A stretch of DNA of 64,000 bases from Shigella phage SGF2. How positions within the stretch are numbered: position 1 is the first letter of the stretch; each line of letters begins with the position of its first letter. The notes under the pieces were generated by a model. That model saw only the letters and a list, made by a program, of their open reading frames with translations, was not told the DNA's origin and did not search any database. Positions 53,822-63,596 of this stretch are shown here, piece after piece. The position numbers and the translations under genes were made by a program. Where the stretch lies: sequence record MN148435, one strand, 5' to 3'.

Positions 53822-54025
53822 TTAGTAGAACGAACGAATTTCATCCCACACTTGTTCCTGTTCTTTCCTATAAAAAGAAAGTTGGGTCTTGAACATCTCC
53901 ACTGATGATTCAAAGTTTTTGGTTTGTGCAGCTTCAACGAAACGTTCATGTCGGTTGATTTTGCACCGTAGCATTAAATACTTGGCTTCAAGTCTCCGAA
54001 GAGCCTGTCTTTTCTCAAGATTCAC
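53822..54025 (-). CDS. hypothetical small protein
   Basis: 67-aa ORF. Confidence 0.35.
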   Translation of the reverse strand: MNLEKRQALRRLEAKYLMLRCKINRHERFVEAAQTKNFESSVEMFKTQLSFYRKEQEQVWDEIRSFY

Positions 54026-54434
54026 TTTTCAGATACTCTGACCAGTCGCCAGATTCAACCAGAACATCTTGTTCTTCGTCAATGTGATAAATCCAAGCGA
54101 TAACAGTTTCACCTGAGTCCAGCTTAACGGCAATCTGAGTTCGTTGATAGAAGCTATCTTCAGGGCTACGTTTATTGTAACCTTCCAGACGATCGTATGG
54201 ACCTTCCAGACCTGCTTTGTCAGTAGCAAACACTTCTACACGAACAGGCTTATTGTTATTGCTGTGTGCGAGAGAGATGCTTGGGAAGTAGGAACCACCA
54301 TAGCGGAACAGATCAAAGTTGTCTTCAGTCCAACCTTCACCAATTGACTTAGCACCAGCTCGGTCATTAACTAGATAGTTAGCTTGACCACGACGAAGAG
54401 AACCATAAGTTGCTACGTAAATTACTTCTGACAT
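54015..54434 (-). CDS. gamma-glutamyl cyclotransferase (GGCT/AIG2-like)
   Basis: N-terminal VATYGSLRRGQANY matches the YGSL AIG2/GGCT motif; 139 aa. Confidence 0.5.
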   Translation of the reverse strand: MSEVIYVATYGSLRRGQANYLVNDRAGAKSIGEGWTEDNFDLFRYGGSYFPSISLAHSNNNKPVRVEVFATDKAGLEGPYDRLEGYNKRSPEDSFYQRTQIAVKLDSGETVIAWIYHIDEEQDVLVESGDWSEYLKSES

Positions 54435-54435
54435 T

Positions 54436-54645
54436 TTAAATACCTTTCCAGTCTTTCATGATGTTTTCAATATAAGCACACTGCTGATCAGTGGCTCCTG
54501 TTACAAACACTTCTAACCCCAACTGCTCGCAGAAGGGATTAAGAATCAATATTCTGGTTTGTCCGTATGAGTGATGCTCTCGGTAGATAATACACCCAGC
54601 ATCCCATACAGAGTCAATGGCTTTACTTAATCTTTCATGTTTCAT
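54436..54645 (-). CDS. hypothetical small protein
   Basis: 69-aa ORF. Confidence 0.35.
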   Translation of the reverse strand: MKHERLSKAIDSVWDAGCIIYREHHSYGQTRILILNPFCEQLGLEVFVTGATDQQCAYIENIMKDWKGI

Positions 54646-54698
54646 AAAACCTCCAGTTTATCCGAACTAGCCCCCTCTTTCGAAGAGGCTAAAGCAGA

Positions 54699-54884
54699 TT
54701 ACTCTGTAATAAAGATTTTAATCACACCGCAGATTGCTGCACTCTCAAACACTGCAACGGCTTCACTTCCTTGAAAGAAGGCCACTTTGCCATCAGAGAA
54801 GTTAAACATGTCAGCATCTAGGTCCATAGCTCGCATTTCACCAGCGGTATTAGTGTCTTTAAACAGAACTTTATACTTATTCAC
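54699..54884 (-). CDS. hypothetical small protein
   Basis: 61-aa ORF. Confidence 0.3.
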   Translation of the reverse strand: MNKYKVLFKDTNTAGEMRAMDLDADMFNFSDGKVAFFQGSEAVAVFESAAICGVIKIFITE

Positions 54885-60609: not shown

Positions 60610-60618
60610 GATAACCTC

Positions 60619-61425
60619 TTATGCTACCTGAAGGAGTTTGATCTGCTGGTCCGCTTCTTTAACGTTGTTGCCGTTAATGATTTCATGAAGCTTCTCAATC
60701 GGAAGGCGAGAGTGTAATGCCATCAGAGTGGACATATCACACTGCTGAACAACTTTGTCAACCTGATCGTAAACAAACTTACGGTTTTCACGATCGCTAA
60801 TCCAGAAGTTAGACAGTGAACGGTATTCGATACCATAGTCTTTATAACGGATTGCAGACGCTTTACCGTAGAGTTCTTTACGGCGAGTATCTTTATCCAT
60901 AATAACTGCTGGGAGGGACAGGAAGTAGTCACACAGCACACCCAACATCATCTGAGTTTGCAGGGTGATATCCAAAGCACCAACTACGCCGAGATGTACG
61001 TGACCACCGGCAGTACGAAGCCCTTTATTCTGAGAAGTCGGGGATGGATTCTTCTGACCAGTGAAAGCGTTGAAATCAGGAGTACATCCGAAGATGAACG
61101 CTGATTCATTGAAAGTCTTCATCTCTTCTTCAGTGAAGATGTGAGAGCTAACACCCGGAGCTGTTTCCATGTCCAGTTTGTTCAGGACATTGTTGGTGAG
61201 ATCGATACCACGTTGCATGTTATCGTTAAACGCTTCAAAGCCGCTCTGTGGGTCAATATCAAACTCAGCCAGTACGTTGTCCTCTTGAAGACGAACATCC
61301 TTAGCCAGAGTGATCTTATCGTCCTTAGAACAACCTAACAGACCAGCTACAGAGGTGATAATACCATTGCTGGTACGAACAAACATTTCAGGGTCAGAGC
61401 CGATAAGGAATTTGCGCTTAGTCAT
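60619..61425 (-). CDS. second amidoligase-like protein (weak)
   Basis: LIGSDPEMFV and AGGHVHLGV echo the GxExE / HVH pattern of neighbour 58892..59995. Confidence 0.35.
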   Translation of the reverse strand: MTKRKFLIGSDPEMFVRTSNGIITSVAGLLGCSKDDKITLAKDVRLQEDNVLAEFDIDPQSGFEAFNDNMQRGIDLTNNVLNKLDMETAPGVSSHIFTEEEMKTFNESAFIFGCTPDFNAFTGQKNPSPTSQNKGLRTAGGHVHLGVVGALDITLQTQMMLGVLCDYFLSLPAVIMDKDTRRKELYGKASAIRYKDYGIEYRSLSNFWISDRENRKFVYDQVDKVVQQCDMSTLMALHSRLPIEKLHEIINGNNVKEADQQIKLLQVA

Positions 61426-62389
61426 TGTAATACTCCACTAGTTCAGAAAAGAGAGATGAGATTGTGTTACCAACTTCTTCAGTAGTAAGGCCAGAGCTTG
61501 GACCAGTACGCTGAATTAGTCGGGCTGTAAAGTTTTGTACTGTAATGTTTCCCAACTTGTCGTCTATTGATTCACGTTTGTGACCATAACAGTTGGACCA
61601 GAGTCTTAACCACTCTGACATTGTTTCATACTCGTCCGGGTCTTGATCTTTAGCACGAGCAAATCTTCGTAAGGCATCTTGGTTATGGTTACGAACATAA
61701 CCGTCCTTGTTGTCACCAACACCGAAGGGGTTTTGCACCCATACTTGTTTCGTGTATTCATCAGAGTCTACAACCAAAGGAAGGAATGCTGCTGCTGACA
61801 TATTGTTATTAACAACAATAGAGGTGCTCTCGCTACTCCCATTGGCTCTTCCTCGTTGAGACCATCCACCGAAGAAGTCACGACCCAACCCAGCTAACAC
61901 TAGAGCGATGCCGATGCGCTTACGCTTCAGCCACTCTTCCCTGTCTTCAATTCCTTCTGCTAGGAAATCCATTCCACGATACTGCCCTTCCAGAATGCTA
62001 CGGAAGAGCATAAGTCCTGTGAAGATTTGATCTGCTGGATGCTCACGGAGGTTGACAGCAACACTATTCGCTGAAGTGATCGTAAATATACCACGATAGC
62101 AAGACATAGAGTTCATAATGTCTGCTGTTTCAACCAAGTTCTTTTCAATGTCAGATGCAGCGAGACCATGAAAAGAGTGAGTCCAGTAATTCAACATCTC
62201 CAATTGCAAGTTAATGTCACGGTTGAAGCGTTTATGACGCCCTTCTTCCATGACACATTCGTCATTAACATCATATACGACTTGACCTTGCATGTAGTTG
62301 TGAATACCGAAGCACCCACGACCTAAGAACTTCTGTTCCCCTAAATCCTGTTGAAGATTAAGAGGTACGATCGTTGTGGAGATTGCCAT
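61418..62389 (-). CDS. hypothetical protein
   Basis: 323-aa ORF. Confidence 0.45.
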   Translation of the reverse strand: MAISTTIVPLNLQQDLGEQKFLGRGCFGIHNYMQGQVVYDVNDECVMEEGRHKRFNRDINLQLEMLNYWTHSFHGLAASDIEKNLVETADIMNSMSCYRGIFTITSANSVAVNLREHPADQIFTGLMLFRSILEGQYRGMDFLAEGIEDREEWLKRKRIGIALVLAGLGRDFFGGWSQRGRANGSSESTSIVVNNNMSAAAFLPLVVDSDEYTKQVWVQNPFGVGDNKDGYVRNHNQDALRRFARAKDQDPDEYETMSEWLRLWSNCYGHKRESIDDKLGNITVQNFTARLIQRTGPSSGLTTEEVGNTISSLFSELVEYYND

Positions 62390-62399
62390 AACTAACCTT

Positions 62400-63596
62400 T
62401 TATTTTCCTAAAAATAATCCGCTCATAATACCATCCCATTCAGAGGATGGAAACACCGAATACTCTGAACTTTGGTCCAGAGTTCCGCTACTGAATCGCT
62501 GAACAATATTATAAATATTGAACATATCTTTAGTCTCAGCGCGATAAGCGTAGACTAATCTGTCAGCTGTTCTTTCATCTTTAGATACCCGACGAGCAAA
62601 GGTAACCAGAAGGTTGTCACCTTTGAGTATTTCTGACTCATCTTTTACTAGATCAGGGTGCATAACCGGCAAGAACATCGAGTTATTAACTCGTAATTCT
62701 GCTGTTTCATCATTCTCATAATGAATCCACTTAAAGTCTTCATCACGGAAGTGACCGCATCCATCTCTGTACGACTGCTGACGCCAAGGCACTTTAAACG
62801 CTTCAGTATACTTATCAGCCATACCAACTGTAAATAGCGACGCTGGGAAGATACAAGCATCCCAATCATTACCGACCAGAGTTGCTTTCGTTTCACCCAA
62901 GAGGTTAGTGTAAGTGCTAACCATTCGTGAGTAAACGTAAGCCTGAAGAATTGTCCAGCCTTCAACCAACCATTTATGAAGGAAGGTTTCAACTTGACTC
63001 TCTTCATCTTCACAATAGAAGGTTCGATCTAACATCAAATAGAACAGACAACGATCAGCAGGAACATTCTCAGTTGCTACCCCCATAAAACCTTTCTCGT
63101 GCCAGCGTAAACAGGAGGGACGATCTTTGTCCACAAATGCTTCCATAGCTTCCAGTACAGCACGAGGTGTGGTTTGATGTTCAGGATTTTTATTATTCCA
63201 ACGATCAATGTTATTCTTAGGAGGTGTGTCTTCATCTTCATACGAACACCAACTTAAAGCTTCAGCTACGTGCTTTTCATCACGCCAGCGTCTAAAACCT
63301 AACATCTTCATGTGAGTTCCGGAGTTCCAGATATGCTTGATTTTACACATATCCATCTCTCGGCTTAACAGGAACTCTTCCCCATCAGCACTACGAACGT
63401 TAGCTTCTTCATGCCACACTCGAACGTGCATATTCCACCCATGAGTTGCCTCATACATGTTAGGGTCGAAGTATTCATCTTCGTCATCGTCTTCATCAAC
63501 GCCACCGTTATAGTTGCGAAGCTGAAGGAACCCATAACAAGGAGGGTTGACCGTTAAAACATTACCTTCAGTATCTTCTAATGTTACTGGAAACAT
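62400..63596 (-). CDS. hypothetical protein
   Basis: 398-aa ORF with acidic stretch DEDDDEDE. Confidence 0.45.
   Translation of the reverse strand: MFPVTLEDTEGNVLTVNPPCYGFLQLRNYNGGVDEDDDEDEYFDPNMYEATHGWNMHVRVWHEEANVRSADGEEFLLSREMDMCKIKHIWNSGTHMKMLGFRRWRDEKHVAEALSWCSYEDEDTPPKNNIDRWNNKNPEHQTTPRAVLEAMEAFVDKDRPSCLRWHEKGFMGVATENVPADRCLFYLMLDRTFYCEDEESQVETFLHKWLVEGWTILQAYVYSRMVSTYTNLLGETKATLVGNDWDACIFPASLFTVGMADKYTEAFKVPWRQQSYRDGCGHFRDEDFKWIHYENDETAELRVNNSMFLPVMHPDLVKDESEILKGDNLLVTFARRVSKDERTADRLVYAYRAETKDMFNIYNIVQRFSSGTLDQSSEYSVFPSSEWDGIMSGLFLGK

Follow-up and report, generated by a model that had tools for sequence, protein, structure and literature searches.

Introduction

Genes for a set of amide-bond-forming enzymes, carried together by phiEco32, LUZ24, phiRIO-1 and related phages, form a cassette that has been in the literature since 2009 and was described in silico between 2009 and 2017 as an operon for gamma-glutamyl amides or unusual peptide bonds. 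The locus analysed here lies in a 64,000-nucleotide stretch of Shigella phage SGF2 (MN148435; this whole stretch is referred to as the window) and is the phiEco32 orthologue of that cassette: it holds the same five enzyme families in the order found in LUZ24, Vp_R1 and Rembedalsseter, and no essential difference separates it from the published cassette. Its detection is a correct rediscovery of a published, named cassette and not a discovery. The present analysis widens the definition to nine or ten genes, including two orphan families, and adds the domain architecture of the amidotransferase, its ATT start codon together with a widespread mis-annotation, and an argument against DNA as the target. 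The favoured reading, held at a probability of roughly 0.5, is a cytoplasmic early pathway that would ligate and trim an L-gamma-glutamyl or peptide conjugate, preferentially on a low-molecular-weight, peptide-like substrate.

According to later papers (PMC10580990, PMC11318856), Iyer et al. (2009) put forward the idea that superinfection is prevented through changes made to the cell wall by the amidoligase and amidotransferase of phiEco32. Hardies et al. (2013), as represented in citing papers, and Duhaime et al. (2017) describe the cassette as shared by LUZ24, 7-11 and RIO-1-like phages and propose peptidoglycan modification. In phage SU10 the cassette genes belong to the early class, and the ATP-grasp, class-II glutamine amidotransferase (GATase) and YtfP-like proteins were detected by mass spectrometry (PMC4281155); the homologous genes of Pseudoalteromonas phage HP1 are "expressed immediately" (PMC7082346). 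A literature search for experiments on cassette function found none.

Several cellular systems resemble parts of this assembly. The ergothioneine pair, formed by EgtA (a gamma-glutamylcysteine ligase) and EgtC (a class-II N-terminal nucleophile, or Ntn, amidohydrolase), is among the closest. The gamma-glutamyl cycle and glutathione synthesis (GshA, GshB, GGCT) use the same three folds that occur together in the cassette, but the two glutamine synthetase (GS)-like ligases, the Ntn enzyme and the four extra partners of the cassette are not needed by the cycle, and no cassette protein has an NCBIfam match to GshA or GshB. The RimK family (RimK, MptN, CofF, LysX), whose characterised members add L-glutamate to Glu-terminated proteins or cofactors, has its ATP-grasp core in common with the window ligase (1.5e-10); the latter scores far under the family cut-offs and carries an additional acidic linker and an 80-residue C-terminal domain. 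Pupylation combines a paralogous GS-like pair, the ligase PafA and the deamidase Dop, with the small protein Pup, and yields a gamma-glutamyl-lysine isopeptide. The cassette likewise holds two paralogous GS-like carboxylate-amine ligases, but it has no proteasome link and no Pup-like protein with a conserved C-terminal Gln/Glu, as checked for its 77- and 74-residue proteins. In butirosin biosynthesis, the ATP-grasp ligase BtrJ adds a gamma-glutamyl group that the GGCT-fold enzyme BtrG later removes as 5-oxoproline; the likeness is one of mechanism only, since the cassette has neither an acyl carrier protein nor aminoglycoside genes.

Cassette composition

The cassette comprises three ATP-dependent carboxylate-amine ligases, one Ntn glutaminase-type enzyme, one GGACT cyclotransferase and four conserved partners. 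All of its genes lie on the minus strand, closely packed or overlapping, in the early arm of the genome, and they occupy roughly 10% of the 77 kb. From low to high coordinates they are as follows.

54015..54434, minus strand: GGACT/AIG2-fold gamma-glutamylamine cyclotransferase-like enzyme (PF06094, 2.8e-17; phrog_2520, 1.1e-44)
55136..56338, minus strand: RimK-like ATP-grasp ligase, with a core of residues 1-270, then an acidic linker and an 80-residue C-terminal domain
56341..56565, minus strand: 74-residue lineage-specific small protein (phrog_13464 only), between the DUF7195 and ATP-grasp genes
56546..56779, minus strand: DUF7195 protein of 77 residues (PF23825, 4.7e-17), directly downstream of the amidotransferase
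56782..58812, minus strand: 676-residue class-II (Ntn) glutamine-amidotransferase-type enzyme (GATase_6), with an ATT start
58892..59995, minus strand: Amidoligase_2, an ATP-dependent carboxylate-amine ligase resembling glutamine synthetase and gamma-glutamylcysteine synthetase (PF12224, 4e-8; phrog_7469, 6.9e-159)
59992..60609, minus strand: 205-residue orphan protein (phrog_4877) with a GTG start, between the two GS-like ligases
60619..61425, minus strand: COOH-NH2 ligase type 2, an ATP-dependent carboxylate-amine ligase resembling glutamine synthetase and gamma-glutamylcysteine ligase (PF14395; phrog_3815, 3.3e-118)
61418..62389, minus strand: 323-residue protein of the C[FY]G family, second of a pair, whose stop overlaps the start of the COOH-NH2 ligase gene
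62400..63596, minus strand: 398-residue, very acidic protein (phrog_13063, no annotated function), positional equivalent of LUZ24 gp14

The original prediction, made from the letters alone, had read this region as five co-oriented genes for amide and gamma-glutamyl chemistry, and all five are present on the minus strand where it placed them. Its broader proposal of a peptide or gamma-glutamyl ligation and turnover system is supported by profiles, catalytic residues and synteny. Specifically, four of the enzymes have Pfam matches above cut-off, PHROGs families agree for all five, and the ATP-grasp enzyme is recovered through an orthologue profile. The catalytic residues align and are invariant in each enzyme, and the motifs picked out by eye (YGSL, GxExE/HVH and CGIV...RxATxG...NxHPF...HNG) all fall in invariant columns.

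Conservation of the gene block

Of 50,697 phage records, 305 hold a homologue of the COOH-NH2 ligase, and most of these come from phages of Pseudomonas, Escherichia, Vibrio, Aeromonas, Proteus, Salmonella and Cronobacter. Eight neighbourhoods were examined besides the window: those of LUZ24, the crAss-like Cellulophaga phage phi14:2, the Vibrio phages KIT05 and Vp_R1, the Citrobacter phage CVT22, the Pseudomonas phage Rembedalsseter and two metagenomic contigs (L007 and L008). The amidotransferase, both GS-like ligases and the ATP-grasp gene lie together in a single orientation in all eight, which represent at least six lineages. Because the ligase is rare among phage records yet the enzymes are co-located in every neighbourhood, the grouping is not a matter of chance. 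An identifiable GGACT gene is present in every examined neighbourhood except those of KIT05 and CVT22, and, wherever the locus extends far enough (tblastn map), the block lies upstream of or next to a gene for a primase or primase/helicase.

The common order runs from two proteins of ~270-320 residues through the COOH-NH2 ligase, the ~200-residue protein, Amidoligase_2, the amidotransferase, DUF7195 and the ATP-grasp enzyme to GGACT. This order is kept in Kuravirus, Bruynoghevirus/Vicosavirus (LUZ24/Rembedalsseter), Grimontviridae (Vp_R1) and both metagenomic contigs, while cassette proteins are 25-45% identical between lineages. Amidoligase_2 adjoins the amidotransferase in 6/8 of the further neighbourhoods; the COOH-NH2 ligase takes that place in KIT05 and CVT22. 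The expectation that relatives would keep the genes as a block thus holds in phages as distant as LUZ24, phi14:2, Vp_R1, Rembedalsseter and the two metagenomic phages. Over a shorter distance, island proteins are 92-100% identical to those of the annotated relative Paul at ~95.6% DNA identity, which indicates purifying selection.

In phi14:2, whose host belongs to the Bacteroidota (L003 6650-12294), the five enzyme genes are contiguous between primase and uracil-DNA glycosylase genes, and a separate DUF7195 or ~200-residue gene is not detectable at the locus. The phi14:2 amidoligase is 515 residues long, with an N-terminal extension of ~200 residues that might stand in for the absent ~200-residue or DUF7195 partner. 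The metagenomic loci (L007 14238-18550, L008 14681-19847) are flanked by genes for PRPP synthetase, NAPRTase, Macro and NUDIX proteins, an NMN transporter, RtcB and an Rnl2 ligase; these NAD-salvage and RNA-repair genes are absent from the Kuravirus window. The cassette-bearing Pseudomonas phages LUZ24 and Rembedalsseter belong to the same group that is known for motif-specific single-strand nicks (tf, Rembedalsseter; WACTRTGAC), and no evidence for a link between the cassette and nicking was found in these phages.

Ligases and cyclotransferase

Both GS-like ligases are identified by Pfam above threshold. Amidoligase_2 scores 33.9 bits against a cut-off of 22, and its residues G29, E31, E33, E58, H95, H97, E186 and R188, which make up the GxExE, HxH and ExR motifs, are invariant. 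The COOH-NH2 ligase had been considered only a weaker amidoligase candidate in the original prediction; it proves to be a firm match to PF14395 ("phage phiEco32-like COOH.NH2 ligase type 2"; 2.2e-8, 34.1 bits against a cut-off of 25), with E54, H142, H144, R182, E200 and R202 invariant among eight orthologues and 100% amino-acid identity to the Paul protein at ~95.6% DNA identity. PDB sequence searches with both ligases, as single sequences and as an orthologue profile, return no match even at E<=10.

The GGACT enzyme matches nearly the whole of PF06094 (positions 2-119 of 120) and scores 63.8 bits, well above the cut-off of 22.8. Its YG(S/T)L motif (Y10, G11, L13) and DxLEGY motif (D81, L83, E84, G85, Y86) are invariant in seven orthologues. 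GGACT chemistry requires a free alpha-amine on the gamma-linked L-glutamate.

The product of 55136-56338 is, by its sequence, a RimK-like ATP-grasp enzyme and not a RimK orthologue. Taken alone, the sequence gives sub-threshold Pfam matches (18.2 bits for RimK, whose cut-off is 21). A profile built from eight orthologues, in contrast, matches the RimK structures 7qyr, 7qys, 5zct and 4iwx at 1.5e-10 to 3.3e-8 over profile positions 38-251. In NCBIfam, MptN and rimK_fam rank first, both far below their cut-offs (rimK_fam 29.6 against 143.4; RimK equivalog 22.2 against 331). It is this combination of a profile match to RimK structures with NCBIfam scores far below cut-off that argues for a RimK-like enzyme over an orthologue. 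Residues K85, E157, R159, H161, K173, R190, N191, D229, E241 and N243 are invariant in the orthologues, and phrog_20552 spans residues 319-400.

The class-II amidotransferase and its start codon

The amidotransferase matches GATase_6 at 1.1e-14 (55 bits against a cut-off of 27), with Cys1 and the RxATxG, NAHP, HNG and VDS motifs in invariant columns. Residues R86, N97/H99/P100, H110-N111-G112 and D129 are invariant or nearly so and align with GlmS motifs; in this alignment R86 and D129 correspond to the GlmS residues that bind the alpha-carboxylate and alpha-amino group of glutamine. An AlphaFold2 model built from a 51-sequence alignment (predicted local distance difference test score, pLDDT, 84.7) shows the four-layer fold in the Ntn domain. 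Beyond this domain the model contains a disordered linker and helix, an OB-like barrel, zinc ribbons with conserved Cys pairs and a small beta domain.

No acceptor (synthase) domain of the kind found in GlmS, PurF, AsnB or GltS is present: Pfam gives no domain after residue 240, longer homologues included, and the GlmS and PurF equivalog scores in NCBIfam are far under cut-off. A search for informative domain fusions in longer homologues of the amidotransferase, ATP-grasp and amidoligase proteins found none. The OB-like barrel gives weak OB/S1-like fold matches. Both it and the zinc ribbons have a net acidic composition, a feature that speaks against general binding of nucleic acids and in favour of contacts with a protein or cationic ligand. 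A nucleic-acid-binding role for the OB-like domain was down-weighted on this ground.

Translation of the amidotransferase begins at an ATT codon at 58812 (AAA ATT TGT GGC ATC GTA), followed immediately by the Cys codon and preceded, 8 nt upstream, by an AGGTGG Shine-Dalgarno sequence. The program-made list of open reading frames (ORFs) starts the gene at a GTG at 58734, but the frame continues open upstream of it as far as a stop that precedes the AAA ATT TGT stretch. Among homologues, 42 of 51 begin with MCG(I/L). Orthologues carry ATG or TTG at the codon in question; ATG stands at the very position of the Kuravirus ATT in LUZ24, Vp_R1, KIT05, Rembedalsseter and the two metagenomic phages. 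The open frame, the Shine-Dalgarno sequence, the homologous N-termini and the orthologous start codons agree, so that the ATT start, already proposed in the original prediction, is taken as right. Public Kuravirus annotations mostly start the gene 78-114 codons late (562 residues in Paul; 563 in a 99%-identical cluster of 211 members), and the nucleophile Cys is consequently lost from the public proteins.

An additional short frame precedes the start codon.

58816..58845, minus strand: 9-codon upstream ORF, MKGFTLQVD*, read from the sequence, with its stop 3 nt before the amidotransferase ATT

This stretch is identical in phage Paul. Because the stop lies only 3 nt ahead of the ATT, coupling of the two frames by termination and reinitiation is possible.

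Conserved partner proteins

The original prediction had regarded the small and unassigned ORFs of the island as accessory components. This view stands for DUF7195, the 205-residue protein, the 323-residue protein and probably the 398-residue protein, which are conserved partners; the 74-residue protein is lineage-specific. Relative to the published cassette, the ~200-residue protein and DUF7195 are added as constant members, and the two upstream proteins are united in one paralogous C[FY]G family, in which membership of the 398-residue protein is probable.

DUF7195 follows the amidotransferase directly in five lineages. Its relatives include LUZ24 gp20 (5.2e-19), Vp_R1 gp66 (BLASTP, 2.6e-15) and proteins of both metagenomic contigs, and R15, P18, P49 and P51 are invariant. 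A search of its profile against the PDB gives noise only and no relative. The neighbouring 74-residue protein is 100% identical in Paul, and no sequence homologue was found in other lineages, though a small ORF fills the same slot in Vp_R1 and L008. The C-termini of both small proteins differ between lineages.

The 205-residue protein belongs to phrog_4877, common to LUZ24 gp17 and Vp_R1 gp69, and is linked to phrog_11055 of KIT05 and CVT22. Among 1.84 billion representatives, only 64 clusters belong to its family. One Lys is invariant throughout and the N-terminus is conserved as MSLxxDF; no confident fold could be assigned.

The C[FY]G family is defined by an alignment in which C26 is invariant and F27, G28, D120, R130 and G230 are nearly so, together with a PAD...R motif. 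The 323-residue protein matches its metagenomic orthologue in L007 (319 residues) by BLASTP at 2.7e-5; the latter has a paralogue in its own neighbour (3.4e-8) and relatives in the proteins at the same position in L008 and Vp_R1. The 398-residue protein is probably a divergent member and the first of the paralogous pair. It carries PPCYGF near residue 20 and VPADRCLFYLMLDR at 178-191, so that both family signatures occur in the right order, and the second motif gives a weak hhalign alignment to the family (E 0.09). Acidic residues outnumber basic ones in it (70 D+E against 42 K+R), a DEDDDEDEYFD run lies between the two signatures, and no other island protein evolves as fast (92% identity to Paul).

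The C[FY]G family has no PDB match by profile and no consistent Pfam match across 17 members. Collectively, the orphan families (~200-residue, C[FY]G and DUF7195) have no PDB relative and, in Pfam, none beyond PF23825 of DUF7195 itself; PADLOC defence models match no island protein.

Proposed pathway

The favoured pathway rests on the combined chemistry of the five enzymes. Judging from the aligned residues, the Ntn enzyme and GGACT have pockets for a terminal L-glutamyl group whose alpha-amino and alpha-carboxyl functions are both free. All cassette proteins are predicted to be soluble, and none of the enzymes has a transmembrane segment or signal-like N-terminus. Early in infection, one GS-like ligase would couple free L-glutamate, through its gamma-carboxyl, to a cytoplasmic substrate that bears an amine, after which the second GS-like ligase and the RimK-like enzyme would add further residues or amide groups. 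The Ntn enzyme would either feed glutamine-derived ammonia to an adjacent ligase or cleave the gamma-glutamyl amide in the manner of EgtC, and GGACT would finally strip the gamma-glutamyl handle as 5-oxoproline. The peptidoglycan precursor peptide of the published proposal would be one example of a low-molecular-weight, peptide-like substrate, though by itself a rather unlikely one.

Several points weigh against this pathway. The sequences name no substrate, and none has been identified by anyone. The ~200-residue protein with its invariant Lys, the C[FY]G pair with its invariant Cys and DUF7195 fit no less well if the cassette works on a carrier or a protein substrate than if it works on a small molecule. 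RimK, the closest solved relative of the ATP-grasp enzyme, modifies a protein, and the OB-like and zinc-ribbon modules in the amidotransferase model suggest binding of a macromolecule. Where the substrate is taken to be peptidoglycan, two further points apply: the cassette contains no Mur-ligase, UDP-binding or lipid-binding domain, and the D-iso-glutamate of the stem peptide, with its alpha-amine blocked, mismatches the L-gamma-glutamyl pockets of GGACT and the Ntn domain.

Alternative functions

The rival that survives best, to be held tentatively, is protein tagging. Here a protein of the host or the phage would receive glutamate or short peptides from the ligases at a lysine, the C-terminus or the N-terminus, as happens with RimK, Pup or SidJ. 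Trimming or erasing would then fall to the Ntn enzyme and GGACT, and the ~200-residue protein, DUF7195 or the C[FY]G pair would serve as substrates or adaptors. In the PDB, the ATP-grasp profile finds its best match in RimK structures, and the two paralogous GS-like ligases parallel PafA and Dop of pupylation. Epsilon-(gamma-glutamyl)-lysine, an isopeptide, is the classical GGACT substrate, which fits such a role. Additionally, the invariant Lys and strongly conserved N-terminus of the ~200-residue family and the invariant Cys of the C[FY]G pair offer candidate sites, the acidic OB-like and zinc-ribbon modules of the amidotransferase suit protein contacts, and the early timing suits host takeover.

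Set against these points, no small protein of the cassette ends in a conserved Gln/Glu or Gly-Gly; DUF7195 and the 74-residue protein both lack a conserved C-terminus. The Ntn and GGACT pockets require a free alpha-amine and alpha-carboxylate and would therefore act on a side-chain-linked single Glu or on isopeptide in free form, whereas a tag linked through a peptide bond would not be a target. No unusual adducts are reported in the SU10 proteomics, which did not search for them (PMC4281155). On balance protein tagging is nearly as likely as the small-molecule reading. A more specific and distinctly improbable version is a self-contained writer and eraser of protein glutamylation or peptidylation, serving immediate-early takeover or counter-defence, with the orphan partners as carrier, adaptor or first substrate.

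Modification of peptidoglycan for superinfection exclusion, by which the precursor stem peptide is remodelled and later phages can neither adsorb nor penetrate, is the published hypothesis and is rather unlikely on the present evidence. It goes back to Iyer et al. (2009), known here through PMC10580990 and PMC11318856, and was also proposed by Hardies et al. (2013) and Duhaime et al. (2017); in the cited papers it stands as a hypothesis only. In the stem peptide there is a gamma-glutamyl amide, and its D-Ala-D-Ala bond is formed by an ATP-grasp enzyme. Some bacteria use class-II amidotransferases to amidate their peptidoglycan. Moreover, the proteobacterial and Bacteroidota hosts have a common basic Gram-negative wall chemistry, and immediate-early expression suits an exclusion function. 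However, all of the proteins are cytoplasmic by prediction, Pfam shows neither a Mur-ligase domain nor one that binds nucleotide sugars or wall precursors, and the blocked amine of D-iso-Glu does not fit the L-gamma-glutamyl-specific pockets. Wall synthesis is also likely to be limited during a short lytic cycle.

Hypermodification of DNA or nucleotides, with an amino acid or peptide attached to a base, was among the targets suggested in the original prediction and is now very improbable. Such a function would account for the restriction resistance of Gordonclarkvirinae, described in the BASEL study as "remarkably resistant to RM systems" with no known protective pathway. EcoRV sites (33 against 17 expected) and EcoKI sites (11 against 6 expected) are not depleted in the window, so that site avoidance alone cannot account for this resistance. 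Across the whole window, CCWGG (5 observed against ~88 expected), GGATCC (0 against 9.5), CTGCAG (0 against 17), GGTACC (0 against 9), GATC (133 against 252) and GGCC (47 against 113) are strongly avoided. The cassette always abuts a primase/helicase gene, the amidotransferase has its weak OB/S1-like fold matches, and amide ligation on DNA has a precedent in CmoY (PMC12783734).

The main contrary observation comes from Rembedalsseter, which carries the complete cassette: comparison of native with whole-genome-amplified DNA by Nanopore sequencing shows strand nicks only and no DNA modification motif (PMC11780129). DNA hypermodification was rejected as the main explanation on this result and is largely refuted for the Pseudomonas relatives. 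Also against it, phiEco32 termini were mapped by restriction profiling, and the OB-like and zinc-ribbon regions of the amidotransferase are net acidic. Pfam scans of 40 of the larger ORFs in the non-structural region (~34-64 kb, outside the plus-strand structural genes of 1-33 kb) found no enzyme that would install a chemical handle, whether hydroxymethylase, carboxymethyltransferase, DpdA/transglycosylase or base kinase, and returned only canonical dCTP deaminase, ThyX, polymerase, PhoH, Macro and similar proteins.

Finally, the view that functionally unrelated genes merely lie side by side in a densely packed early region, to which the interspersed gp79-like transcription factor gene (54881-55129), several tiny ORFs and the lack of an internal promoter or terminator pattern marking a separate operon might point, has a negligible probability and is ruled out by synteny, since at least six lineages, with proteins 25-45% identical, keep the genes in one set and order, and among them is a crAss-like phage of different genome architecture.

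Genome setting

The window is 96% identical across its whole length to Escherichia phages NJ01, ev_rybdy3 and others, and 64 phage records cover at least 80% of it. Its annotated relative Paul is a Kuravirus (Gordonclarkvirinae, phiEco32-like), whose annotation ties the island genes to phiEco32 gp79 through phi32_86. A run of small ORFs flanks the island on one side, and genes for a primase/helicase, an exonuclease, a nucleotidyltransferase and a dCTP deaminase on the other. In a scan of the island, promoter-like sites are fewer than in shuffled sequence and terminator-like sites are intragenic; for this reason no operon boundary can be drawn.

One further gene is embedded in the island, yet lies outside the enzyme set of other lineages.

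54881-55129, minus strand: phiEco32 gp79 homologue, flanked by the ATP-grasp gene and the GGACT gene, with 100% identity to its Paul counterpart

According to PMC12276001, phiEco32 gp79 is a transcription factor that displaces the host sigma factor.

Elsewhere in the window, a dCTP deaminase and a 475-residue protein with a weak poly(A) polymerase/CCA-adding head domain are encoded at 49542-51512, and ThyX at 46770-47426, all on the minus strand. The BASEL authors considered that a dCTP deaminase and a nucleotidyltransferase might hint at DNA modification such as dU; since ThyX is present, ordinary dTMP synthesis is the simpler reading. Also on the minus strand are a SLOG (YAcAr) domain protein (35164-35556), a Macro domain protein (36220-36660) and a stand-alone NAD+-binding Nlig-Ia domain (45647-45976), which by their look have functions related to NAD or ADP-ribose, possibly in counter-defence. 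A 203-residue protein at 47968-48579 (minus strand) has a ferritin-like domain (2.9e-7) and may be Dps-like; the overlapping Paul gene is labelled as a DNA-binding protein (phiEco32-like).

Significance

The cassette is spread among podoviruses of Escherichia, Salmonella, Proteus, Cronobacter, Pseudomonas, Vibrio, Aeromonas and marine bacteria, as well as a crAss-like phage. It is among the first genes to be expressed and was first predicted seventeen years ago. Its carriers include therapy-candidate phages (LUZ24-like phages and Kuravirus) and the BASEL phage Bas91, which infects E. coli K-12, and genetics, metabolomics and proteomics are therefore straightforward. If the writer and eraser of protein modification were real, it could underlie the restriction resistance of Gordonclarkvirinae without DNA modification. 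More generally, solving the cassette would explain a widespread immediate-early phage function and might explain how Gordonclarkvirinae resist restriction.

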